DNA of 52,089 nucleotides from a virus (IMGVR_UViG_3300041407_000207:1-52089); one strand, 5' to 3'; shown: positions 29,652 to 52,089, counted from the stretch's first letter. Translations and numbers: made by a program. The notes: a model not told the origin generated them from the sequence alone.

Positions 29652-31232
29652 ATGTACAAACTCATTGATAGCAGTTCGTTCTTCGATCAGGAAGATCTCC
29701 AGATAACCATCTTGAGCGGGCCCGGTTTTACCGACGGGCTCGTTAAAGCTGCTGCCGATGAACGAGTGAAGTCCTATGTAATGGACAGCCTCAAGCTTCA
29801 ACCTGGAAAAATGTATCTCCACATCAACGCCATGGGCGCTGGTGAATTCTACGGCCCAAACCGTAACGGAGATTATTTCCCAGAAGAAATTCTCAAAAGA
29901 TATTACAAGACTTTTGAAACCTCTCCAGCCCATGTATTCCGTCATCACGTAAACAAAGATCCAAACCGAGCAATCGGCAAAGTAATCTTTGCTCTTTACA
30001 ATGATCGTATGCACCGAGTTGAATTGGTTGCAGAAGTAGATCGTAACCTAGGTTCGGACGTCGAAGAAAGAATTGCGCAAGGTGACTTCCCCGCAACATC
30101 CATGGCATGTAAAACACCCTACGATGTTTGCTCTATCTGCAATAACAAAGCCCACACCCGTCAAGAGTACTGCGTTCACCTCAAGCAGCATCTCGGCAGA
30201 CAAATGCCGGATGGCAGACGAGTCATGGCGATCAACTCCGGTCCGCTTCGTTTCTTCGACATCAGTATCGTAGTTAAACCTGCGGACATCACAAGTTCTA
30301 TTCTTCAGAAAGTTGCCAGTGAACTTGATCCGGTAATTTCTTCAGCGCTTCTTGCAGAAGAGGAAGGTCTTGAGTATGGCAATGATCGTGAGAAGTCTGC
30401 CTCTATCGCTAAAGTCTCTGAGTTGATCAAGGAGATCGAAGGTTACGTACAAGGTACTGACACTCACATGGAAGGGATCCTCTCTCAGATCAAAGATCCT
30501 GAGGTTGAGGACATCAAGAAACTTGAGAGCGTACCTCTGGAAGAGTTGTTCCAGACCTTCGGAGAGCTTGGGATCAGTCCTAGTTTGAAATTCCTGGCAG
30601 AGATCATTGCCCATAGAATGGGTCATGGCACTCCGGGTATCGGACGTAAAGTGATTGAAACTCTTAACTCTTCAGAGCTTTCTGGCGTTAAGATTCCTGT
30701 AGTAGAAATGGAATCTGAGAGAGAAGTTAATCCTATGGTTAAACAAGCTTTGGCCAGATACCAAGGATCATCTTCATTTTTCCCGGAATTCATTGAGAAA
30801 CGAGCTTCGGTAGGGTATGCAGGTATGGGCCCTAAGATCGAGATGAATGAGCAAGAGATTCGCAGAGATGAACGTATGCGAATGGAAGCTCAAAGCCACA
30901 GCATCATTGATCATGTAAAAGAGCATCCTATTTCGGTACTATTGACTATCGGTGGAGCAGCTCTGTGGGCCAAGGCCTACATCAACTCTATAATTGAGAA
31001 ACGACTTGCAGCGATGCAGCCTAGGTCTCAATCCGTTATCGTCAAAATGGCAGGGATGTCGGCAGGGAAGGAAATGTCTTATGAAGACAAAGTTAGAACT
31101 GCTCAGTTGAAAGCTCTATCGAAAACGGTATCTTCACTGCAAGCTCCTAGTGGTGGTAATGCTAAGCTGACGGTTGCTTTAAAAGTCCTTGCCGCAGCTC
31201 ACAATCAAATCACTAAAGGCTCTGCGAGTTAA
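29652..31232 (+). CDS. prohead (capsid maturation) protease with long C-terminal extension
   Basis: NRNGDYF, FRHHVNKD (His), IGKV, RVELV, TSMAC (Ser) in HK97/T4 gp21-type order; CSIC...C.H zinc motif; upstream of scaffold and MCP genes. Confidence 0.8.
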   Translation: MYKLIDSSSFFDQEDLQITILSGPGFTDGLVKAAADERVKSYVMDSLKLQPGKMYLHINAMGAGEFYGPNRNGDYFPEEILKRYYKTFETSPAHVFRHHVNKDPNRAIGKVIFALYNDRMHRVELVAEVDRNLGSDVEERIAQGDFPATSMACKTPYDVCSICNNKAHTRQEYCVHLKQHLGRQMPDGRRVMAINSGPLRFFDISIVVKPADITSSILQKVASELDPVISSALLAEEEGLEYGNDREKSASIAKVSELIKEIEGYVQGTDTHMEGILSQIKDPEVEDIKKLESVPLEELFQTFGELGISPSLKFLAEIIAHRMGHGTPGIGRKVIETLNSSELSGVKIPVVEMESEREVNPMVKQALARYQGSSSFFPEFIEKRASVGYAGMGPKIEMNEQEIRRDERMRMEAQSHSIIDHVKEHPISVLLTIGGAALWAKAYINSIIEKRLAAMQPRSQSVIVKMAGMSAGKEMSYEDKVRTAQLKALSKTVSSLQAPSGGNAKLTVALKVLAAAHNQITKGSAS

Positions 31233-32823: not shown

Positions 32824-33657
32824 ATGCCCAATATTTATTTGGAAAAGATTGCCCTCACTATTGAGGACACTCGTGCTGCTCGTAAATCCGGAGATGCTGC
32901 CGAAAGGAAAGTCCGGTTGAAAGGTGCAGGTATCGGGGCAGCCGTAGGCGGAGTCACCGGTGGTGGCCTTGCATACCATTTCGGTAAAAAGATGATCAAA
33001 GATCCTATCTTCGGACAAGGACTTAGATCTACGGGATTATCCAACAGAAAATTGCAGGCCGCAGTAGCAGGTGCCGGTGTTTTGACAGGTGCGCTCTTCG
33101 GGGCTGCTTCTGGGGATGAACATTCTTACGGCGCTTCTCGTAAGAAAAAAGTAGATGCATATCATGCTCGTATCAATAAGGCTCTTACAAAATCTGCTGC
33201 TGTAACTAAAACTCAAGTTGAAGCTAGAGTTAATCGAAACGATGCTCTTAGAGATGTTTCGAGAGTTGGCGGATTTGTGGCGGGTACGGCAGGAGTAGGC
33301 GGTCTTCACCTACATAAAGCCATGAAGAATGGGGGCGGTTACGCAGCGACGAAAGACGCTATGAGAAACGCGTATCATCGTCGTAAATCAAATCCTGAAA
33401 AGAAAATTGATAAAGGTTCGTTTCTAACAAAGTTAGAAGATATCAAACCTTCGAGAAGCGTTGCTAAACATATCGACCGAAGCGGTATCGCCCGTAAAGT
33501 AGGTAATTCGTTTGGTAGCTCGCTGTCCGGTAAAGGATTGGCAGGTGTCGCCGCAGGAGCACTCCTTGGAAGCTACGCAGCATCAAAAAGCATGACTGCC
33601 AAAAATGATAAGTCAGACGTCAATTACTACTCTAAGCTGAGCAAGAAAAATGGATAA
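32824..33657 (+). CDS. basic glycine-zipper protein with NxYLEKxA leader (putative virion internal protein)
   Basis: MPNIYLEKIA; four Gly-rich hydrophobic segments. Confidence 0.6.
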   Translation: MPNIYLEKIALTIEDTRAARKSGDAAERKVRLKGAGIGAAVGGVTGGGLAYHFGKKMIKDPIFGQGLRSTGLSNRKLQAAVAGAGVLTGALFGAASGDEHSYGASRKKKVDAYHARINKALTKSAAVTKTQVEARVNRNDALRDVSRVGGFVAGTAGVGGLHLHKAMKNGGGYAATKDAMRNAYHRRKSNPEKKIDKGSFLTKLEDIKPSRSVAKHIDRSGIARKVGNSFGSSLSGKGLAGVAAGALLGSYAASKSMTAKNDKSDVNYYSKLSKKNG

Positions 33658-34018
33658 CATCTACTTAGAAAAAATTGCTCAGGATGCTCCTGTAAAGAAG
33701 CAGTCTACATTTCTCCATGCGCTTGGTACTGAGGGCACTGCCATCGGTGTTGGCCTCGGAATGAAAGCAGTTGGATCTAGGTTTGGTGGTGGAAAGTTCG
33801 GTGCTGCTTTGGCTAAATCCAAAGTAGGTAAGTTTGCTTCTAAAGCTTTCTGGGGACAGAAAGATGTTGGCGGCAGAGTTCTTACTGGAGAACTTGGTGA
33901 ATACACCGGCAGTGTTGCTGGGGTATACGGAGCTCTAAAGTTAAAAGAACATTCCGATAACAAAAAAGCGAAGAACGCTTACTTACAAAAAGCCGCGAGC
34001 TTAGTAAAAGCGCATTAA
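33650..34018 (+). CDS. basic glycine-zipper protein with NxYLxKxA motif at both ends
   Basis: MDNIYLEKIA...KNAYLQKAA. Confidence 0.6.
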   Translation: MDNIYLEKIAQDAPVKKQSTFLHALGTEGTAIGVGLGMKAVGSRFGGGKFGAALAKSKVGKFASKAFWGQKDVGGRVLTGELGEYTGSVAGVYGALKLKEHSDNKKAKNAYLQKAASLVKAH

Positions 34019-36049: not shown

Positions 36050-36694
36050 ATGTCAAATCCCTATCTCGAAAAAGCTGCTTCACTGTATGACTTCTGGAAT
36101 GACTTTTCCGGCAAGGAACATAACGAGTTAAAGGCTCGGAAGCATCACTTTGAAAAAGCAATTGCCAACAACGACACCGTTGAGGGCTTGGCTAGTCGTA
36201 TTAAGCAGACCGGTGATAGGACCTTTAGAGCTCGAGGAAGAGTAGGCCTGGCCTCTCTGGGACTTGCAGCTGCGGGAATCATCGGTACTAAGAAGTACGC
36301 AGATCATCAAGACCGCATAGCTACGGAAAATCTTCGTAATCTTTTCTTGCTTCAGAAGCAAGCAGGGATTGCAGGAAAGACAGTTTCCGGGTTAAAGTCA
36401 GTGGGTTCAGGTGCTTTGAATATTTTGAACACTGCTCATGGTGGGAAAGTAAAACAGTTCGGCGTGGATACTTTCGGAAAGCATACCCCTAACTTTAAGA
36501 AGTTTGTGGGTTCCAATAAAACAGAACAGAAGAAATTCGTAAAAGGTCCTGAACTGGATAAGCTTAAGAAACTTCACCGCCAACAACGTTTGTCCCAAGT
36601 GGGTGTATACGGATCTGCGGGCAGTCTTACTCTCGCCTACCGTAGCAATAAGAACAAGCAGAACGCGGCTTACCAGCCTCAGTATTACTACTAA
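36050..36694 (+). CDS. basic protein with NPYLEKAA leader (putative virion internal protein)
   Basis: MSNPYLEKAAS; internal LLQKQAG; Lys-rich. Confidence 0.6.
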   Translation: MSNPYLEKAASLYDFWNDFSGKEHNELKARKHHFEKAIANNDTVEGLASRIKQTGDRTFRARGRVGLASLGLAAAGIIGTKKYADHQDRIATENLRNLFLLQKQAGIAGKTVSGLKSVGSGALNILNTAHGGKVKQFGVDTFGKHTPNFKKFVGSNKTEQKKFVKGPELDKLKKLHRQQRLSQVGVYGSAGSLTLAYRSNKNKQNAAYQPQYYY

Positions 36695-39039: not shown

Positions 39040-41649
39040 ATGGCTTACGTAATCCCCTCCGTTCTCGTATACCAACAGCTAGAGAACAGCGGTGGCGTAC
39101 TCAATTCGACCCCGGACCTGCATGCGTGCATCATTGGCCCTTGCTATACCGAAGTCATTTATGAGTCAGGATCGACCGAAGCTCTGGTGAAAACCGCAGC
39201 TAAATCGGCAATCCGTACCACCGGCACCGCCGTAGTTGGCAGCAAAGATGTAACCGTCGCTTCTATCTCCGGGTTCTTCTCTGGCGATAGCATTGTACTG
39301 GAAGGTGCTGCTGCATCTGGTGGCCCTCTGGCTGCAACCGTAGTATCTGTAGTAGGTACAGTTATTACTTTGGACGTTGCTGTAGTAACCGCCGTTACCG
39401 ATGCTTCGATCTCTAAAAAAGGTCTTCTAGTAAACGCTTCTGTTCCTAACATTTACGCTCTTCCGAACGTTAAGCCTGGACAAAAAGTAGTTGCTGCTGA
39501 CACTCGTATTTACCTAAACAACGTTTTGGTATCTACCGTAGCTACTAAAGCTGAAGGCCATTCTCAGGGCAACGTCCTGTCGATCACTTCTTTCGCCACT
39601 ACTGGTGCAGCTACCGCTGCCTCTTCTGTAGTTACCGTAGCTAGTGCTTCGGGTCTGGTAGACGGAGATTTCATCACCGTTGCAGGCGCAGGTCTCGCAG
39701 GTGCGAACCTCTCCGCAAGAATCGTAGATATCACCGGCAATGTCCTCACTCTGGACCGTGCAGTTGGTACTACCGTGAGCACCGCAGCTGTCACCAAGAA
39801 TAACCCGATGCTCGTAAATGAGCTGAGCAATACCTATAACGCAGAAGCCGGTGACACCGTAAAGGTTGCTTACACCAATACCTCTTCTCAGTCTCTGGTG
39901 TTCTCGTCCCTGGTAAAAGAAGTTGTTTCTTCTGCCGGTGGAATCACTCGTCTGGTTCTGACCGATAACCTGCCAGCAGATGTGAGTGCTAAAACCACTG
40001 CTACTACCACTGCTGCAAGCAGCGACGTAACTGTTGCAAGCTCAACCGGCATTACCGTAAACGGTCGTGTTCGTGTAGTAGGTACTGGCTTCGACATCTA
40101 CACTACCGTAACTGGTATTGCAAGTTTGGTAGTTACTCTCGCAGACGCAATTCCAGCTACTCAGTCAGGTGCTCAGTTCTACGTTCTGAACTCTTCTACT
40201 GTATTTGTAGAGAAGGGATACAACGATCAACTGCTTCCACTGAATAAGCCAATCAGTTCAGGTACTAACTACAACCTGGATAACATCGGTGATGAATACG
40301 AATTCACCATCAATGCTGGTTCGGAACTGATCTACGGCCCAATCGTTTCTGCAGATGTTCACGTAGGTTACCGTGCTCTTCGTACTGACCTATCTGGATC
40401 TGTTCTGGAAATTGCAGACATCAACGATCTGGCAGGTGTGCTGGGTGATCCGACTGAGAAGAACCCGCTGTCTCTGGGTGTTCAACTTGCTCTGGCCAAC
40501 ACCACCACTTCGATTCGTGCGATTGCTATTCCTTCGGATGACCTGATGGGTTATCAGATTGCACTGGAACTGGCTGAGAACATTCGTCTGTACGCAATGA
40601 CCCCGCTTACTCAGGATATTGGCATCATCAATACTCTGAAAGCACACTGCGATCAGCTGTCTACTCCAGTAGAAGCTTCGTGGCGTGTTGCACTGGTCAA
40701 CGTTAAGACTCCGGATGAGCAATCTGTTGGTCAATACTCTGCTACGTTCTTGAACGCAGCTACCGGTATTACCATCGAGAACATCGCTGGTAAGTTTGTT
40801 CTGAACGCTGCTAACGCTACTTTCTTGAGCGATGCACTGGTTCCTGGCGACATCATCAAGGTGGTCTCTGCTACTCCAGGTACTTCGATCAACGATTACG
40901 TAGTTCAAGAAGTAGTCAGCAACCAACAAGTAGTCATTGACGCTACCGAAGCAGCTATCAACGTCTCGTACTGGGCTTCTCGCAAGCTCACCAAGACTCA
41001 ACAAGCTGACTGGGTTTCGAAGACTTCTGCACAGTTCAACGATAAACGCGTTATCAATATCCAGCCGGATACTTGTGGCGTGAGCATCGGTGGAGTTACT
41101 AAGTACCTGCCTGGCTACTACTTGGCTTGTGCGATTGCAGGTATGACTGCTGGCTTCCCAGTTCAACAAGGCTTTACCAACATCGGCCTAGCCGGTATCA
41201 CTGACCTGAAGCGGAGTAACTTCTACTTCACCCGTGCTCAGATGAACCACATGGCTGAGACCGGTACCTTCTTGATCGTTCAAGATGTTCAGGGTGGAAC
41301 TCCTTACGTTCGTCACGCGATGACCACTGATATCTCCGTACTGGAATATCGTGAATACCTCGTAGTGAAAAACTGGGACTACCTGAGCTACTACTTCTAC
41401 GACAAGTTGAAGCCATTCATCGGTACTTGGAACATCACTACCGATACTCTGAACAACATTCGCCAGACCGTCGTAGCTTCCGCAGAACTGCTGAAGTCTA
41501 AGAAACTGCCGAAGATTGGCCCTCCACTGGTTGACTACAACCTGGCGATCATTGGTCAGAATGCGGTAAACAAGGATAACATCGATATCAATCTGAAAAT
41601 TGCAGTCGTGTATCCGAACAACTACACCAACTTGTACCTGATCATCTGA
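39040..41649 (+). CDS. contractile tail sheath protein with inserted beta-rich repeats
   Basis: C-terminal sheath domain (PGYYLACAIAG...QQGFTN...FTRAQMN.MAETG...RHAMTTD...REYLVVKNWDY); start reassigned to ATG at 39040 behind AAGGAG. Confidence 0.88.
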   Translation: MAYVIPSVLVYQQLENSGGVLNSTPDLHACIIGPCYTEVIYESGSTEALVKTAAKSAIRTTGTAVVGSKDVTVASISGFFSGDSIVLEGAAASGGPLAATVVSVVGTVITLDVAVVTAVTDASISKKGLLVNASVPNIYALPNVKPGQKVVAADTRIYLNNVLVSTVATKAEGHSQGNVLSITSFATTGAATAASSVVTVASASGLVDGDFITVAGAGLAGANLSARIVDITGNVLTLDRAVGTTVSTAAVTKNNPMLVNELSNTYNAEAGDTVKVAYTNTSSQSLVFSSLVKEVVSSAGGITRLVLTDNLPADVSAKTTATTTAASSDVTVASSTGITVNGRVRVVGTGFDIYTTVTGIASLVVTLADAIPATQSGAQFYVLNSSTVFVEKGYNDQLLPLNKPISSGTNYNLDNIGDEYEFTINAGSELIYGPIVSADVHVGYRALRTDLSGSVLEIADINDLAGVLGDPTEKNPLSLGVQLALANTTTSIRAIAIPSDDLMGYQIALELAENIRLYAMTPLTQDIGIINTLKAHCDQLSTPVEASWRVALVNVKTPDEQSVGQYSATFLNAATGITIENIAGKFVLNAANATFLSDALVPGDIIKVVSATPGTSINDYVVQEVVSNQQVVIDATEAAINVSYWASRKLTKTQQADWVSKTSAQFNDKRVINIQPDTCGVSIGGVTKYLPGYYLACAIAGMTAGFPVQQGFTNIGLAGITDLKRSNFYFTRAQMNHMAETGTFLIVQDVQGGTPYVRHAMTTDISVLEYREYLVVKNWDYLSYYFYDKLKPFIGTWNITTDTLNNIRQTVVASAELLKSKKLPKIGPPLVDYNLAIIGQNAVNKDNIDINLKIAVVYPNNYTNLYLII

Positions 41650-41825
41650 TGGGTAACAAGTATTTGGAAAAGGTGGCTTCGATACTGAAGCTGCCTGGAC
41701 CAAAGGCGAACGCTTTAGGTGAGGTTGTCCGATCTGCTAAAGCGTTTTCTGGTAAAAAGAACTTCGGATTTCACTCAATGGCGAAGACGCCGATGATTGA
41801 ACGAATCAAAGCTTCACTCCATTAA
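41649..41825 (+). CDS. 58 aa basic peptide with NKYLEKVA leader (not in ORF track)
   Basis: Own translation MGNKYLEKVASILKLPGPKANALGEVVRSAKAFSGKKNFGFHSMAKTPMIERIKASLH*; ATG overlaps the sheath TGA. Confidence 0.7.
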   Translation: MGNKYLEKVASILKLPGPKANALGEVVRSAKAFSGKKNFGFHSMAKTPMIERIKASLH

Positions 41826-42900: not shown

Positions 42901-43761
42901 ATGACTACTACCAATCCCTATCTTGAGAAATCTGCAAGCCTGTTAGCTGGGGCTGCGTTGACTCACCTCGTTCAAAACGTAGCTACAAACCAGGCCTTGA
43001 AAAACAAGAAAGTTGCCAAGTATCTGGCCAACTCTCTGACTCAGGGATACCACGGCGTAGTAGATACTTCTATAAAAGCTAAGGCCACTCGTGCCGCTGC
43101 ATCCGTAGTAGTACCAGACGTAGCCGCTGCTCATAAAGCAGCTCACCAAGCAGGGGCTAGTCTCAAAGATATTCTCAGTGGTGCTACGAATCGACAGAGG
43201 GCTGCGTCGAGGATGGCGGTAGAGGGTAAATTCGAGCAGCTAAAAAAATACAAAATGCATGAAGATCCTGTGGTTAAGAAGGTTCAGGATTTGGCTGCAA
43301 AACATTTACCTACGTTGAATGATATTTCCAAAGGCGCCTCTAAGTCTTTGAGTGATCTTTGGAAAGACAAGACTCACCCATTGCTCAGCAATATTGCGAA
43401 GAACATTGGTCGAGGTGAAATACCTAAAGGTCCTCAGTTCAAAGTTGGGAATATGAACCAAACCCTACCGACCCTAAGTTCTATAGCCATTGCACCTATC
43501 GAGCCTAGTGCTGCTGCCATTGATGGGATCAAAGCACTCGCAGGTAGCTCTGCAGTGCAGTCAACTCAGACAGGTAAGAAAGCCGTAGATTTCTTGAGAA
43601 AGACTTTCATCGACGACCCTTTGAAGAAAGGGATGAAGGCTACTGCTGAAGTTAAAGGATTAAAACATGAGGCTTCGAAATTCCTCCTCAATCCTACCTC
43701 TGCACATCTAAAAAGAACAGCGGCTGCAGTATCGCAAGCCGCCAAGTCTTCTCAGGTATGA
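42901..43761 (+). CDS. basic Ala/Lys-rich protein with NPYLEKSA leader (putative virion internal protein)
   Basis: MTTTNPYLEKSASL. Confidence 0.6.
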   Translation: MTTTNPYLEKSASLLAGAALTHLVQNVATNQALKNKKVAKYLANSLTQGYHGVVDTSIKAKATRAAASVVVPDVAAAHKAAHQAGASLKDILSGATNRQRAASRMAVEGKFEQLKKYKMHEDPVVKKVQDLAAKHLPTLNDISKGASKSLSDLWKDKTHPLLSNIAKNIGRGEIPKGPQFKVGNMNQTLPTLSSIAIAPIEPSAAAIDGIKALAGSSAVQSTQTGKKAVDFLRKTFIDDPLKKGMKATAEVKGLKHEASKFLLNPTSAHLKRTAAAVSQAAKSSQV

Positions 43762-46077: not shown

Positions 46078-46482
46078 TTAAGAAACTTTTGCTACTAGCT
46101 CCTTAGAACTGCGCTGGAATACCTCGTTCACAAACCTTTCAAAGCGTTTCACAGCACTGCGAGTAGTCATTTCGTCAGAGCCAGAGAGGGCATACCGCAC
46201 GGTTGCAAGCATTGCTTGAGTCCCAAAATACTCTCCAGCCAACCCAATCTCTTCTGGAGATAAAGCCGTCAATAACGATATTTCATGTTCTAGAGACAGC
46301 TTATCCATCTCCTCCATGAACTGCGCCTTGCTCCTTATGATGCCCTGCCTACGGGCGATAATTTCCAAAGAAATCTTAGCGGTCAACTCCTCGACACCCC
46401 CTTTCTTTGAAAACAGTCGAGTGAAATGAATCTCCTCAACAGCCCCATTGATATAGCGTCTGTTCCAAGTGATAGTTTGCAT
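46078..46482 (-). CDS. hypothetical protein
   Basis: Own class E motif at 46516, AGAGG RBS. Confidence 0.7.
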   Translation of the reverse strand: MQTITWNRRYINGAVEEIHFTRLFSKKGGVEELTAKISLEIIARRQGIIRSKAQFMEEMDKLSLEHEISLLTALSPEEIGLAGEYFGTQAMLATVRYALSGSDEMTTRSAVKRFERFVNEVFQRSSKELVAKVS

Positions 46483-46515
46483 ATTGGTGAACCTCTATGT
46501 GTTTCCCCATAATAC

Positions 46516-46522
46516 TTATACC
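46516..46522 (-). promoter_or_regulatory. class E promoter motif GGTATAAG
   Basis: TTATACC, intergenic. Confidence 0.7.
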
Positions 46523-46536
46523 AGTTTCGGAAGGCT

Positions 46537-46563
46537 AAAAAGAGGCCCCGGCAAAAGCCGGGA
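46537..46563 (-). terminator. intrinsic terminator of the RT operon
   Basis: Minus strand CCCGGC-TTTT-GCCGGG then GCCTCTTTTT. Confidence 0.65.
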
Positions 46564-46726
46564 AGTCCTCATAAGTGCGGGTGGTTGATGCCCATGGCAA
46601 TTACATAGCGCTTACCCAATCTGTCTTGCCTCACAGTCAGGTCTGGCCATAACGAGAATACAACCTTGAGAAGCCCGTAACACGTCATATTCATTCTCAT
46701 CATTTGAACGACGTATTAAATTTGAA

Positions 46727-47830
46727 TCACTCAGGTTGGTGTTGGTAGGGAGTTGATCGACAGATCTCTTCCCATTCCGTGCATGCCCTTTGGAACGACG
46801 AAATAAGCCTCGACGAACCTGCAGGGTTTAGCTGTCCAAACCAATTGAGTTTCCCACGAATTCTCAGCATGAATTCGTTAGGGGTAAGGTTGGTCTTGGC
46901 CGCTTCTGCTTCCAAACCATTCTTACCTGCGTTGTGAACGATTGCCCTTAGGCGGAGACGCTCCTCTTTTAAGAGGTTCACCTTTTCGTTCACTACCGTA
47001 CCACAGACATACAATCGACTGTGTCGGGTACCTTTCTTCATCACTTTCGTCTTTCCACGGTTAACTCGAAAACCGTACCGTGTAAGGACTCCGGACACAT
47101 AGTCGATAGCCTCTTTGGAATCAAAAGACTCCTTGGAGGATATCGTTATGTCATCTGCGTAGATGGTGAGGGCAAGCCCTCGATCATCGCAGTACTTCTT
47201 TACTTCAGGCCCGAAGGTCCTAGAGGCAACAATGTTGCTGATCTTTGGACTGGTCAATCCACCCTGCGGAACATTAGGACCTAAGGTCATAAGCTCCGAG
47301 AGTGTTCGGGCTGGAGACTCTCCAAAGCCAACGCTCAGCATCAAATCTTTCAGAACGTGTTGCTTAATGCTCGGAAAGTAATTCTCGATGTCTAAGCTTA
47401 CAATTTGCAAACTACCTTCATGCACCCTTGCCATGACCGGAATGGATTTGTCCCGTTCAAAAGCATAAATGTAATCCGGAATCTCGAAGTACTTCTCTAG
47501 GACCTCCTTCAAGATTCGGAACTGCAACAGACGCATTAGATCGCTTGGATTGTAAACGACGCGGTGTCCGCCCTTCTTAGGAATCTTCAGAAGCTTGTAG
47601 TGCTCGGATTTGTTCTTGGAAGCATACGTCAGCGTCGACGAGCTCTTGACTCTCAGCAGCTTCGAGAGCTCTCGGTTCGATTGAGGCATTGAGCTCAGAC
47701 TCAGTGACGTCGGGGAGTCCAAGGTGCTCAAGGTTCCCTCCAATGAGGAGAGTTGCTTGTTCAATGCTGAGTCGTCGAACGGGCCGAGCGTCGATTCGAC
47801 GGCGGTAGAGATCTCGAGGATAGACTGCAT
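46727..47830 (-). CDS. retron-like reverse transcriptase
   Basis: Y..LKIPKKGGHR...P, region X MARVH (NAxxH-like), LDIENYFPSI, PQGGLTSP.ISN, YADD, NRGKTK, region Y VCG (VTG-like), GKLNW..QLNP thumb. Start either ATG 47830 (GGAG RBS) or ATG 47689 (where RT homology begins). Confidence 0.9.
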   Translation of the reverse strand: MQSILEISTAVESTLGPFDDSALNKQLSSLEGTLSTLDSPTSLSLSSMPQSNRELSKLLRVKSSSTLTYASKNKSEHYKLLKIPKKGGHRVVYNPSDLMRLLQFRILKEVLEKYFEIPDYIYAFERDKSIPVMARVHEGSLQIVSLDIENYFPSIKQHVLKDLMLSVGFGESPARTLSELMTLGPNVPQGGLTSPKISNIVASRTFGPEVKKYCDDRGLALTIYADDITISSKESFDSKEAIDYVSGVLTRYGFRVNRGKTKVMKKGTRHSRLYVCGTVVNEKVNLLKEERLRLRAIVHNAGKNGLEAEAAKTNLTPNEFMLRIRGKLNWFGQLNPAGSSRLISSFQRACTEWEEICRSTPYQHQPE

Positions 47831-48059
47831 AAAAACCACTCCGAACAGCTCCGGTATTTTTAAGGTAAATAACGCCTACGCGAATTACCCCCACTTGCTT
47901 CTCCAGCGGAATGAACCCCGCATTGTTTGGAGTTCCCAGCACGACTGCGTATTTAACGTAATCTTGCTCCTCGGGGCGGAAACACATAAGGCCCTTGTGA
48001 GGCCTCAGGCATTTAAGGACATCCCGGAATGAGGCTTCAGTACTTTGTCGAATTGCCAT
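47577..48059 (-). CDS. RT-associated hypothetical protein (160 aa) overlapping the RT 5' end
   Basis: AGGAGG RBS; beta-rich N-terminal half; overlaps RT in another frame. Confidence 0.7.
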   Translation of the reverse strand: MAIRQSTEASFRDVLKCLRPHKGLMCFRPEEQDYVKYAVVLGTPNNAGFIPLEKQVGVIRVGVIYLKNTGAVRSGFYAVYPRDLYRRRIDARPVRRLSIEQATLLIGGNLEHLGLPDVTESELNASIEPRALEAAESQELVDADVCFQEQIRALQASEDS

Positions 48060-48080
48060 TAAAGAGCCTCCTGAGCTCGT

Positions 48081-48233
48081 TTAGAAAAGCCAGCTCTTAA
48101 CTGTTTTAAGCGTACGCACTACGAGGGTCTTGATGGGCCCGCAGCGGTTGTATAACTCAATAGCCAACCGTTGTACGAGACGAAGAAGTTCCTCAGTGCT
48201 CATTGCTGAAAAGTCGAAAGTGCTTGCGTTCAT
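48081..48233 (-). CDS. 50 aa hypothetical protein, first gene of the RT operon (not in ORF track)
   Basis: Own translation MNASTFDFSAMSTEELLRLVQRLAIELYNRCGPIKTLVVRTLKTVKSWLF*; AGGA RBS. Confidence 0.6.
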   Translation of the reverse strand: MNASTFDFSAMSTEELLRLVQRLAIELYNRCGPIKTLVVRTLKTVKSWLF

Positions 48234-49172: not shown

Positions 49173-49206
49173 CAAACGGCAAGTCTGAGATGGACGGGGC
49201 TACCGT

Positions 49207-49212
49207 TAAAAT
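49207..49212 (+). promoter_or_regulatory. class L hexamer (CGT)TAAAAT, 6 nt before ATG
   Basis: TAAAAT-actcag-ATG, no RBS. Confidence 0.6.
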
Positions 49213-49218
49213 ACTCAG

Positions 49219-50649
49219 ATGAGCAAACCTACCCAAATTCTCTTTGTCCGTCAGCGGCATGACGCTAAGCGAGCCGGATTACATAATGACTATCGCGTAG
49301 TGATTGGCGAGAAGGCTTTTTCGTGGGCATCTCGTAAAGATTTTCCGGAAGTAGGTAAGCCTACCATTCTCTGGGAGCAGCCTATCCACCATGCCGCATA
49401 TCTGAATAACCCCGACATTACTATTCCGGAAGGGCAGTACGGTGCTGGTACTCAAGTAATTGATTACGCTCAGAAAGGCAACGCCATAGTTAAAAACGAT
49501 GCTTACCACCTAGAGTTAAACAACGGTGATAGGTTCTTAATAAAGAAGGCCCCCGATTCGTACGGCGAGAAGGCTTGGCTTTTCCTAAGGAAGAAGAAAG
49601 TGGAAGATAAGAAAAACCCGTATCTTGAGAAAGTTGCTGCTCTGGGCAGTTCAGACATGGCCGCAGCTCGCAGCCACATCAATAAGAAACGTGAAGAAAG
49701 TGGCAAATCCGAGATTGGATTTCACGATTTCAAAGAACAATTCGAAGACCGTAGGGGTGTAAGTCGTAGAGTAGTTGGTACTATAGGCTTGGCGAACGCA
49801 GGAGCTTTGCTCAACCGATATAATCCTGCAGCAGGAGCCTTGGTCGGAGGAGTTGCTGGGTACTACCTAGGTAAATCTTTCGACAATAAAAATGCTCGTA
49901 AGAACATGATCAAAGAAGCCTCCGAGGATAAGCGTACTAAGGCCACTGCAGCTAAAGAAATTGCAGTAGGTGCGTACGGTCTAAATCATGTTTCGAAAGC
50001 CCCAAGTAAGCTCCTGGGCTATCACAATATGTACCACGGCACTTCCAAAGAGAACGCGAAGTCTATCCTGAAGAACGGCCTGAATAAATCTAAAGGCGGT
50101 AGTCGTGGGGCTAAAGTGTCTATCGGTGGAGAAGATTCTCTTAATGAATTTGTAAATACCGCTAAAAAACATGTCTATATGACTAAGAACAAATTTATAG
50201 GAAGAACCTTCGCAGGCGATAGTGCTAAGCACATTAATACTCACGGGGTAAACAGTGCCAAGGGCACCATCGAGACTCTGAAAGATGGATTTAAAAATGG
50301 CAAGGTGCTAAAGGCACGGGTGTCTCACGGTACTTGGGAGAAAGGCTTCAAGATGGATCCGGACTCCTTCCCTCTGCATATGCGGATGTTTACTGAGGAG
50401 AGCAAATTGAAGCCTATCGCGGCACGCTCTAAGCACAACATAAGCTCAAAGTCTTTTGTTGGCGGTAAGGATGCTCACGGTATTAAAGCCTTCGCCACCA
50501 AGAAAAACCTTCGTCGCTACTACTCCACTGCCAGCGGTAAAGCTCGCGGTAAACTAGGAGCATTCCAGCTAGCTGCCGGTACTGCTCTCGCTGCGGGTGC
50601 TGCGGTACATAACAAAAACAGTGGCGGCGTACTGTCGAAAGGTAAGTAA
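49219..50649 (+). CDS. fusion: LigD-type DNA 3'-phosphoesterase domain, glycine-zipper segment, ADP-ribosyltransferase-like (YHGT) domain
   Basis: QRHDAKRAGLHNDYR, SWA, HHAAY, IPEGQYGAG (PE); NPYLEKVA and MIKEA linkers; YHGTSKENAKSILKNGL...VYMT...FA...VLKARV (ART-like). Confidence 0.78.
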   Translation: MSKPTQILFVRQRHDAKRAGLHNDYRVVIGEKAFSWASRKDFPEVGKPTILWEQPIHHAAYLNNPDITIPEGQYGAGTQVIDYAQKGNAIVKNDAYHLELNNGDRFLIKKAPDSYGEKAWLFLRKKKVEDKKNPYLEKVAALGSSDMAAARSHINKKREESGKSEIGFHDFKEQFEDRRGVSRRVVGTIGLANAGALLNRYNPAAGALVGGVAGYYLGKSFDNKNARKNMIKEASEDKRTKATAAKEIAVGAYGLNHVSKAPSKLLGYHNMYHGTSKENAKSILKNGLNKSKGGSRGAKVSIGGEDSLNEFVNTAKKHVYMTKNKFIGRTFAGDSAKHINTHGVNSAKGTIETLKDGFKNGKVLKARVSHGTWEKGFKMDPDSFPLHMRMFTEESKLKPIAARSKHNISSKSFVGGKDAHGIKAFATKKNLRRYYSTASGKARGKLGAFQLAAGTALAAGAAVHNKNSGGVLSKGK

Positions 50650-50679
50650 GACGATGAACCCTAGAGGAACCAAGGTATA

Positions 50680-51588
50680 ATGAACGCTTATCTTATTAAG
50701 GTAGCCTCTATGTTTTCCCGTGCTAAATATCATGACGATATGGAAAAGATTAGGAACGCTGAGGAGAGAGTTACCTCGTTGAAATATGACGGGGCTAACT
50801 ACTTTCTTAAGTACGACTCTAATGGCGTTCCTACTTTTACATCTCGTAGACTTTCTGTGAAAGGAGAACCTATTGAAAAAGTTGACCGTGTTCCTCATCT
50901 GGCTAAGGTCATTCCTTCTCAAGCAGGTAAAGTCTATAACGTTGAGCTTATTCATACTGGTCATGATCCTCATACTTTTGAGAGTCACTCTCGTGTCTCA
51001 GGTCTACTCAACGCTCTCCCCGAACGCTCAACCAGAGAACAAAACGTCGACGGTCCTATTCGTGCCGTAGTCTTCGATGTGATTCATCCTCCGATTAATA
51101 CCTTTAAGGAGAAGATGGAACATATGAAGGGTCTGCAAGAGGACTTCGGGAATAAGGACCTTTTATTTCATCCACATTTCGAATTCGGGGAGGATGGGAT
51201 GGAGCGACTAATCCAGCAGTCTAAAGCCGAAGGGCGAGAGGGGGTTATCACCTTGGATTTGACCAAGGATGAGTCTAAGAACCCTAGGATTAAACTTGTA
51301 CATAAGAAGTACTACAACTTGAAGGTTCGTGGGATTCTACAAGAACGAGATATTCACGGGAATCTAAAGCCAAGTGCAGGGGCTCTCCAGTTAGAGGATG
51401 CGTCTGGTAATGACGTTGGTAAAGTTGGTACAGGATTCGACCGAGCAACTCGTATCGATATCCATGAAAATCCGAATGCCTGGCTTAACAAGATTATCCA
51501 GGTAAAGGCTATGAAGCCTACTGCTAGTAAAAAATTACGTCAGCCTGTCTACAACGGGGATGCTGACGGAGACGTGGACACAGTCTAA
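50680..51588 (+). CDS. ATP-dependent DNA ligase with NAYLIKVA leader
   Basis: Motif I KYDG, FTSRR, III VELI, IIIa VFDVI, IV EGVI, V IKLVHK, OB domain GKVGTGF, VI LRQPVY. Confidence 0.9.
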   Translation: MNAYLIKVASMFSRAKYHDDMEKIRNAEERVTSLKYDGANYFLKYDSNGVPTFTSRRLSVKGEPIEKVDRVPHLAKVIPSQAGKVYNVELIHTGHDPHTFESHSRVSGLLNALPERSTREQNVDGPIRAVVFDVIHPPINTFKEKMEHMKGLQEDFGNKDLLFHPHFEFGEDGMERLIQQSKAEGREGVITLDLTKDESKNPRIKLVHKKYYNLKVRGILQERDIHGNLKPSAGALQLEDASGNDVGKVGTGFDRATRIDIHENPNAWLNKIIQVKAMKPTASKKLRQPVYNGDADGDVDTV

Positions 51589-52089
51589 ATGCATGAAGAA
51601 CTATTTCTAAATCTGCTCAAACAATACGAGCAGGGAGGACTGAGTCTAGATCGAGTCATTACTGATCCTAGATTTAAAACTATGCCTCTCGCAGAAAAGG
51701 TCCGTCTTCTAAAAGAGCATGGTCATACTATCCACAACGGTAGTAAGATGGATAGTAAGTTTTGGAAAGATCTTGCTATGGGTGCAATGGGTACGGCTAT
51801 TATGGTTGCCGAACCTGCAATGCATGCAGTCTCTGATTTGAAAAGGGGCTACCAGTACGGTGAAGCCGTACGAGCTTCTCATGATGAAGGGAAATCCTAC
51901 GATGGAGAGATTCCGTCAATAGATTTCAAGACGTATAAGAGTATCGCTATCTCTGCTGCCGGTGCAGGTATCGCAGCACCAAAGTTCTACCAAGCCCTTC
52001 AGGCACGAAATAACATGAGAATGGTTAAACGCCTTCTACATGAACAGCCTGGATCGAACACACAAGAAGACGCAATCAACGTAATAGCC
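51589..52089 (+). CDS. hypothetical protein, partial (runs off the window end)
   Basis: ATG directly after the ligase stop (MHEELFLNLLKQYEQG...), open to the end of the window; two hydrophobic Gly/Ala segments. Confidence 0.65.
   Translation, partial: MHEELFLNLLKQYEQGGLSLDRVITDPRFKTMPLAEKVRLLKEHGHTIHNGSKMDSKFWKDLAMGAMGTAIMVAEPAMHAVSDLKRGYQYGEAVRASHDEGKSYDGEIPSIDFKTYKSIAISAAGAGIAAPKFYQALQARNNMRMVKRLLHEQPGSNTQEDAINVIA

Follow-up and report, generated by a model that had tools for sequence, protein, structure and literature searches.

In phage T4, IPI-III and the packaged enzyme Alt carry a capsid-targeting sequence (CTS), MKTYQEFIAE (PMC8442874, PMC3012670, PMC9503650). Polyvalent and MuF-fused effectors, as PMC9503650 relates them from Iyer et al. 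(2017), are multidomain virion-embedded proteins predicted to be injected. The particles of Salmonella phage Arash (OQ632216), a 181-kb myophage, hold an RNA polymerase, a sigma factor and a helicase (PMC10585845). In bacteria, LigD, which unites 3′-phosphoesterase (PE), ligase (LIG) and POL domains, works with Ku in non-homologous end joining (NHEJ; PMC8656161, PMC3082917, PMC3300020). Here we describe a locus that recalls all of these systems, in DNA of 52,089 nucleotides from the virus IMGVR_UViG_3300041407_000207 (the whole stretch analysed, called the window below). A gene for a LigD-type PE (49219-50649) is followed by one for a compact ATP-dependent DNA ligase (50680-51588). Both proteins carry a short peptide tag, summarised as N-x-Y-L-x-K-[VIA]-A, that recurs on proteins of the virion module, and we suggest that the two enzymes may be packed in the particle and enter the cell along with the DNA.

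The tag resembles the T4 CTS in being a peptide of about ten residues common to unrelated proteins encoded with head genes. The two share a Y-x-E-x-I-A core in the same register from Met1 (Y-L-E-K-I-A here, Y-Q-E-F-I-A in T4), and in both cases the cargo includes an ADP-ribosyltransferase (ART)-type enzyme and small basic proteins. Unlike that of T4, the putative cargo here would also include a LigD-type PE, a DNA ligase and an SNF2 helicase. Polyvalent effectors are similar in that fast-shuffling domains that modify nucleic acids or other macromolecules, SNF2 and ART among them, are encoded with head genes and predicted to act on entry. Unlike the MuF and portal fusions, however, the modules here are joined or headed by a short peptide and are as often separate genes as fusions, and neither LigD-PE nor DNA ligase is among the cargo types named in two surveys of injected effectors. 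Arash shares a syntenic virion and RNA-polymerase module, with homologues gp96, gp217, gp100 and gp242 present in its particles, but it lacks the tag (0 copies), and neither a LigD_N domain nor a ligase of this family was found in it. Searches of the literature for a LigD-type PE in a phage, or for a phage DNA ligase carried in the virion, returned nothing relevant.

As in bacterial LigD, a PE with the full catalytic set adjoins an ATP-dependent ligase. The PE-then-ligase order is that of Pseudomonas LigD, and in some phage relatives the PE is N-terminally fused to the ligase. Unlike bacterial LigD/Ku, the phage pair comes without POL/primase and without Ku, and is encoded in a virion operon. 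Pfam detected no POL domain in either open reading frame (ORF), and Ku (PF02735) was found neither in the virus record nor in three complete or near-complete relatives; a Ku-LigD NHEJ system was rejected for this locus on both grounds. The phage ligase shows no detectable close kinship to LigD ligase domains and lies nearer to the ligases of T4, a Rhizobium phage and Chlorella virus and to Lig E. The phage PE lacks the N-terminal peptide of bacterial PEs, like the archaeal stand-alone PEs. The two genes are composed as follows.

49219-50649, + strand: 476-residue multi-module ORF comprising PE, tag, glycine-zipper segment, ART-fold domain and C-terminal glycine-rich helix (ORF list, 30 homologues).
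49237-49593, + strand: LigD-type 3′-phosphoesterase domain, residues 7-125, with catalytic Q12, H14, H22, D24, R26, H57 and Y61 (profile and structure-sequence matches, PMC3082917).
49615-49638, + strand: internal tag NPYLEKVA, residues 133-140, at the junction of the PE and the downstream modules (motif search, alignment).
49639-49890, + strand: basic glycine-zipper-type hydrophobic segment, residues 141-224 (sequence, module comparison).
49891-50646, + strand: ART-fold module, residues 225-476, with the fold core at about residues 266-422 (50014-50484) (model, family alignment).
50680-51588, + strand: minimal ATP-dependent DNA ligase of 302 residues with nucleotidyltransferase and OB domains, motif I K35 at 50782-50784 (PHROGs, profile, model).
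50683-50706, + strand: N-terminal tag NAYLIKVA, residues 2-9, set directly on the conserved ligase core (family alignment).

Residues 7-125 of the first protein align with the solved archaeal PE 3p43 (E 1e-6) and with CkoPE 3p4h (E 0.0018). In CkoPE six side chains are catalytic: Mn2+ is bound by two His residues and one Asp, the phosphate is engaged by an Arg and a His, and the sixth is a Tyr; residues were tied to Mn2+ and the scissile phosphate by mutagenesis (PMC3082917). Q12/H14/H22/D24/R26/H57/Y61 of the phage PE align to CkoPE Q7/H9/H15/D17/R19/H51/Y55 and show no variation across 23 relatives, and the motif IPEGQYGAG is found as well. The Pfam LigD_N model (PF13298) matches at E 1.5e-5 and 25.6 bits, under its curated cut-off of 31.1 bits. 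That cut-off is exceeded by the relatives L024 and L030, and many homologues have a precomputed PF13298 match; PHROGs returned nothing for the PE protein. Judged by these alignments, the PE genuinely belongs to the LigD PE superfamily. An earlier note on this DNA had placed such a domain just before NPYLEKVA, and the 3p43 match, the catalytic set and the tag at residues 133-140 bear this out.

The PE gene runs about 340 residues past the tag (residues 141-476), through the glycine-zipper segment and then the ART-fold domain. Across the 30 homologues the portion after the tag is variable. The tag itself follows the PE in most aligned relatives, with two aligned homologues lacking a recognisable copy, and it stands after the PE in every related locus, either as a regular-expression match or as a visible variant (for example NKYLKQIS in L005). 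In P0015 and other relatives the glycine-zipper segment stands by itself as a tagged module.

The second protein, which opens MNAYLIKVA, matches the ATP-dependent DNA ligase family phrog_114 at 1e-19, and the profile of its family matches 9fzx (4e-13) and the Chlorella virus ligase (6e-7) in the PDB. An AF2 model with a predicted local distance difference test score (pLDDT) of 89.4 finds its closest Foldseek neighbours in the ligases of T4 (E 2.4e-15), a Rhizobium phage (2e-14) and Chlorella virus (1.7e-13) and in Lig E (5.7e-13); the ligase domain of Mycobacterium tuberculosis LigD (1vs0) is a weaker match. K35 (in KYDG), E89, F132-D133, E187-G188 and R203/K205 are invariant or nearly so among 20 family members. 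Fold and intact motifs together indicate that this is a true minimal ATP-dependent DNA ligase of the nucleotidyltransferase-OB type, the compact enzyme beginning with NAYLIKVA that the earlier note had recognised. In the model, residues 1-10 have a pLDDT below 50 and are predicted as a short helix apart from the body. More distant relatives have an untagged ligase starting MFxRAKY. Alignment of the family indicates that the tag was added to the ligase in just the sub-clade to which this phage belongs, so the PE-ligase pair is older than the ligase tag. No second ligase was detected in the record by PF01068, PF01653 or PF09414, nor in the three relatives by PF01068 or PF01653, except for a sub-threshold match of 15.6 bits in G002; PF01068 also misses this family's own ligase, so a divergent second ligase could escape these searches. 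The ligase family also has an invariant acidic C-terminal motif, P-V-Y-N-G-D-A-D-G-x-x-D (window 51540-51585), which we do not recognise among known ATP-dependent ligases.

The tag was searched for as N-x-[YFW]-[LIVM]-x-K-x-[ASG], a pattern matched 10 times by the 116-kb record and 0.94 times by shuffles. Nine copies lie in ORFs of more than 40 codons, all on the + strand. Codon usage varies between the copies, so the tag is conserved as protein, not as DNA. Its most conserved polar residue is K; I/V-A is followed by S, A, Q, L or K, and there is no common cleavage motif after the tag. The peptide shared by the PE and the ligase, another point that the earlier note had made, is one of a wider set of copies. 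It also heads small basic glycine-zipper proteins amid the protease, scaffold-region and capsid genes. In the complete relatives, canonical tags are confined almost wholly to the virion genes: in G003 all 10 fall in the stretch bounded by the RNA-polymerase genes and the terminase gene, and 9 of the 10 in G001 lie in the virion block, the other being in the SNF2 gene. With that exception, canonical copies are absent from the non-virion half of these genomes. A single polypeptide may hold up to three tags, placed at module boundaries, and the same modules also occur as separate ORFs starting M-N-x-Y-L-E-K. The junction before the ART module is degenerate here and intact in P0015. The other copies in the window, all from the motif search, are these.

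32830-32853, + strand: tag at the N-terminus of the 277-residue ORF 32824.
33656-33997, + strand: 122-residue ORF with a tag at both ends (33656-33679 and 33974-33997).
36056-36079, + strand: tag at the N-terminus of a 214-residue ORF directly after the major capsid protein gene.
41655-41678, + strand: tag at the N-terminus of a 57-residue ORF that starts at the stop of the 882-residue sheath-like gene.
42913-42936, + strand: tag at the N-terminus of the 286-residue ORF 42901.

The 122-residue ORF (33650-34018, + strand) has NIYLEKIA at residue 3 and NAYLQKAA 14 residues before its stop. Its homologue in G001 retains both copies, and the double-tagged protein is a candidate adaptor or core protein. 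The tagged 57-residue ORF (41649-41822, + strand), which is unannotated, has conserved counterparts in G001 (64% identity) and L007.

The IMG/VR virus record from which the window comes is 116 kb long and an estimated 65% complete; the window covers its first 52 kb. The virion module is syntenic with that of Arash at 30-55% protein identity, and comprises baseplate genes as well as those for the portal, two large RNA-polymerase subunits, a head protease assigned at PHROG level, the capsid protein and a sheath-like protein. The putative head protease (29652-31232) matches a PHROG family alone, with no match in Pfam or the PDB; Pfam likewise returned nothing for the head-module proteins or the small tagged ORFs. 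The complete IMG/VR relatives G001, which has terminal repeats, and G003 measure 165-185 kb, and the clade is one of roughly 165-185-kb myophages that package their own RNA polymerase. Its tag-bearing members turn up in metagenomes from rhizosphere, plants and food; among the sequencing runs listed for the locus, none is of RNA. Among cultured phages, blastn with the locus matched nothing, tblastn with the ligase reached remote ligases only, and tblastn with the PE protein reached Arash gp96 only, through the C-terminal module. The SNF2 gene has just two cultured relatives, Arash and Pseudanabaena phage PA-SR01, so no tag-bearing cultured phage is at hand for comparison.

Arash is the sole cultured relative with a virion proteome (PMC10585845). 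All four tag-bearing families that have an Arash homologue were detected in its virions by mass spectrometry (PMC10585845): the ART module as gp96 (15 peptides, 816 spectra), the SNF2 helicase as gp217 (38 peptides, 1148 spectra), the 42901 family as the gp100 region (9 peptides, 471 spectra) and the 52101 family as gp242 (21 peptides, 550 spectra). The link between 42901 and gp100 is indirect, by way of a PE-fusion protein of G003, the ORF itself having no direct Arash match. In G003 the 42901 family is fused behind a PE domain in a 419-residue ORF that matches the gp100 region (27% identity, E 9e-13; the match is not mapped to a domain). Consequently, PE fusion partners appear to be drawn from virion-type proteins. 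Since Arash has neither the PE nor the ligase, its proteome cannot speak for them directly.

Two further features concern the expression of the pair.

49204-49212, + strand: promoter-like box CGTTAAAAT, with 6 nt between its end and the PE start codon (copy count against shuffles).
51589-52089, + strand: 169-residue ORF whose start adjoins the ligase stop; it has hydrophobic, glycine-rich segments and runs on for 9 nt past the window (ORF list).

The box occurs four times in the window against 0.47 expected, a count reached in none of 100 shuffles. All four copies are on the + strand, upstream of virion ORFs; the other three precede the portal gene (10223), a gp218-like gene (25521) and the tagged gene at 42901, at 30-164 nt from their ORFs. 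A late-type promoter ahead of the PE and ligase genes had been proposed, and the box there is indeed one common to virion units. Because it ends 6 nt before the ATG and no Shine-Dalgarno sequence was found ahead of that ATG, the mRNA of the PE gene is possibly leaderless. PE and ligase head a six-gene + strand unit of abutting or overlapping ORFs, from 49219 to 53871 of the genome record, which a strong hairpin terminator closes at about 53885-53920. Its last three genes are homologues of the Arash gp242, gp243 and gp244/gp245 region. The shared box, the abutting unit and these homologues from the Arash structural region make it likely that PE and ligase are co-expressed with virion genes. The earlier proposal of late synthesis is thus supported as regards expression alongside virion genes; the late timing itself is presumed. 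Between a baseplate-region gene and the PE unit, the − strand carries a reverse-transcriptase cassette (46078-48233), composed of a 370-residue reverse transcriptase (RVT_1, E 1e-17) and ORFs of 160, 50 and 134 residues. G001 and G003, both complete relatives, conserve this reverse transcriptase in the same place, at 81% and 50% identity respectively.

The pairing of PE and ligase was compared across 16 related loci, whose ligases are 42-77% identical. In 16 of 16 the ligase is preceded, on its own strand and at a distance of 0-5.5 kb, by a PE gene. Three of these loci (L005, L028 and L034) encode a stand-alone PE of 134-156 residues with the tag a few residues from its C-terminus; in the others the tag lies where further modules join the PE. 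The variable ORFs between PE and ligase start M-N-K-Y-L-E-K-I-A, and many are glycine-zipper proteins. The recurrent large ORF among them is an SNF2 helicase, a full-length orthologue (38-43% identity) of ORF 110399-111871 of our record and of Arash gp217. ORF 110399-111871, which lies outside the window (locus L035), encodes an SNF2-family helicase with an N-terminal tag and a TTG start. In Arash the gp217 gene directly follows an RNA-polymerase subunit gene, and the tagged helicase may partner the packaged polymerase in a RapA-like way.

The modules of these loci are also found fused in several combinations. PE-tag-ligase proteins occur in P0064, P0084, P0116 and P0141, a PE-tag-tag-SNF2 protein in L024/L025, and a PE-X-tag-SNF2 protein in L030, while the closest relatives have an X-tag-ligase fusion. 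Domain X is a module of about 125 residues (FNPDLTPEQM...GWFxWY) with a C-terminal tag, fused ahead of the ligase or between PE and SNF2 in relatives (P0034-P0043, L005:10890-11303, L023, L030 and L032); in L005 its tag copy stands a few residues from the C-terminus. It has no Pfam match and is absent from the 116-kb record. A tagged protein of about 160 residues lies directly upstream of the ligase (L022:5488-5973) or is fused to it (P0140, residues 1-160); it gives a weak helix-hairpin-helix signal (HHH_5, E 0.026) and may be a DNA-binding partner of the minimal ligase.

The ART module belongs to a family of about 131 sequence clusters, mostly stand-alone proteins of 220-250 residues, and the family consensus itself opens MxNxYLEKIA. 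It is homologous to Arash gp96, an abundant virion protein annotated as a 'structural protein'. Its model (pLDDT 92.8) matches ADP-ribosyltransferase-fold proteins exclusively. The best match is the NAD lobe of Tpt1/KptA, with a root-mean-square deviation of 3.2 A over 86 residues and a Z of 8.2, just above the tool's quoted background level, followed in order by Rhs TreX, Arr, pertussis S1 and DarT. The module contains a YHGT motif, on which weak Pfam PTS_2-RNA and PARP matches fall, and its H273 and D380 are invariant in 46 sequences. On the model, the module has an ADP-ribosyltransferase fold with an H-G-[ST]-type NAD-binding motif, as in the H-Y-[EDQ] clade, to which it may belong. In Tpt1/KptA, an N-terminal RNA-binding lobe carries the catalytic Arg-His-Arg-Arg set. 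That lobe is not in the ART module: only chain residues of about 88-178, the NAD lobe, align, and a single long helix precedes the NAD lobe in the model. Lacking the RNA lobe, the module is best described as an ART-fold domain, and a Tpt1/KptA RNA 2′-phosphotransferase orthologue was ruled out. Fusion of PE to ART is limited to a subset of the relatives.

We propose that PE and ligase would be transcribed with the virion genes, presumably late, enter the prohead as cargo and leave it together with the genome. The PE, predicted to be Mn2+-dependent, would convert 3′-phosphate or 3′-ribonucleotide ends to 3′-OH, and the ligase would seal the nick left after this cleaning. In this way 3′-blocked nicks and gaps in the entering, or packaged, phage DNA could be mended before new phage proteins are made; the task would be nick and gap repair, not double-strand-break joining of the Ku type. 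In this clade the pair brackets a variable array of tag-bearing genes, within the block of virion and virion-RNA-polymerase genes. The likeness of the tag to the T4 CTS, its confinement to the virion module, the links to Arash virion proteins and the PE-SNF2 fusion make capsid loading the best single reading. The earlier note had likewise held that the enzymes are packaged and injected, and that claim now has this indirect support; we consider the chances of packing and delivery to be about even. A bolder form, in which we have somewhat less confidence, is that the tag is a position-independent address (N-terminal, C-terminal or internal) for preloading a 'first-minute' toolkit, and that the interval from PE to ligase is a cassette-exchange locus recombining at the tag. 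Equally tentative is the content of that toolkit: a 3′-end cleaner, a DNA ligase, an SNF2 motor and an ADP-ribosyltransferase, beside the packaged RNA polymerase.

Several observations weigh against capsid loading, and some of them favour an ordinary intracellular role in replication and repair. No cultured relative has the tag, the PE or this ligase, and the virion evidence comes from Arash homologues, none of it from a tag-bearing phage. With 116 of about 272 proteins listed in the Arash proteome, being detected in it has limited specificity. The T4 CTS is strictly N-terminal and is cut by the head protease at [LI]-x-E, whereas the tag here is also C-terminal or internal, and the T4-type cleavage residue (E after I-A) is missing. 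Arash packages its gp96 and SNF2 (gp217) homologues untagged, so the tag cannot be the sole route into the particle. In the more distant relatives the ligase is untagged though its adjacency to PE is retained. The ligase is also the only recognisable DNA ligase in the record and the three complete or near-complete relatives, which argues that replication must be part of its work, if not all of it, and keeps an ordinary role in play. On this account PE and ligase would be the phage's general and only DNA ligase system, with Okazaki fragments, recombination intermediates or nicks containing ribonucleotides as substrates in the cytoplasm, and their place in the virion operon would be a matter of genome organisation. 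The tag would then serve for docking to an intracellular hub (for example RNA polymerase/SNF2 or a clamp-like factor), or would be left over from the shuffling of modules, and several tagged proteins are indeed nucleic-acid enzymes (PE, ligase, SNF2, ART-fold). Yet the tag also sits on small basic glycine-zipper proteins that have no plausible replication role, is missing from the non-virion half of complete genomes and has a core like that of the T4 CTS, and the PE and ligase genes abut virion protein genes on the same strand. We therefore regard this explanation as a serious but rather unlikely one.

A quite different role for the tag, which we think improbable, is as a processing or modification site, with PE and ligase merely two of its substrates. 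Either the head protease would cut at the PE, zipper and ART junctions, or the tag lysine would be an acceptor for ubiquitin-like conjugation. Multiple tags at boundaries between modules that also exist as separate tagged ORFs would suit cleavage. The strong conservation of K would suit conjugation, as would an E1-like (ThiF) gene of a ubiquitin-like cassette just downstream in this genome and in L007. However, the near-C-terminal copies (the PEs of L005 and L028 and the domain X of L005) would free only 3-6 residues, and the decay of internal copies, degenerate before ART here and intact in P0015, better fits one signal per polypeptide. No common cleavage motif follows the tag, and the putative head protease matches nothing in Pfam or the PDB. 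Least probable of all, and very doubtful, is an RNA-repair kit directed against host anticodon nucleases, by analogy with T4 Pnkp/Rnl1, in which the PE would heal 2′,3′-cyclic or 3′-phosphate RNA ends, the ligase would join RNA and the ART domain would strip the junction 2′-phosphate. The Tpt1/KptA NAD lobes as best structural matches of the ART module and the weak Pfam PTS_2-RNA signal point that way, and the genome also has Ro60/Y-RNA and tRNA-like RNAs. Against this stand the OB domain and DNA-ligase fold of the ligase, whose top structural matches are all DNA ligases, and the missing Tpt1 RNA lobe; further, no 5′-kinase was seen in the unit, and PE and ART are fused in a subset of relatives only.

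Protection against restriction or CRISPR-type cleavage, the purpose that the earlier note had assigned to the pair, is not supported. Restriction and CRISPR nucleases leave 3′-OH/5′-phosphate ends, for which a PE is not needed. The lack of Ku, which would hold broken ends, a PE-ligase pair that predates the ligase tag and the standing of the enzyme as the only recognisable ligase also tell against a counter-defence.

If PE and ligase are indeed carried into the cell, this would be, as far as literature searches show, the first phage to bring its own DNA end-repair chemistry with it. Carried-in DNA end repair is otherwise known from large eukaryotic DNA viruses. DNA repair would then join transcription, host takeover and anti-restriction proteins among the functions that phages pre-package. 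A short, portable and position-tolerant capsid tag would also serve for loading proteins into phage heads. Regardless of packaging, the locus reveals clade-wide phage use of the LigD 3′-phosphoesterase, an enzyme whose biology outside bacterial NHEJ is largely unknown (PMC3082917), and the natural set of PE-ligase, PE-SNF2 and PE-ART fusions points to its partners.

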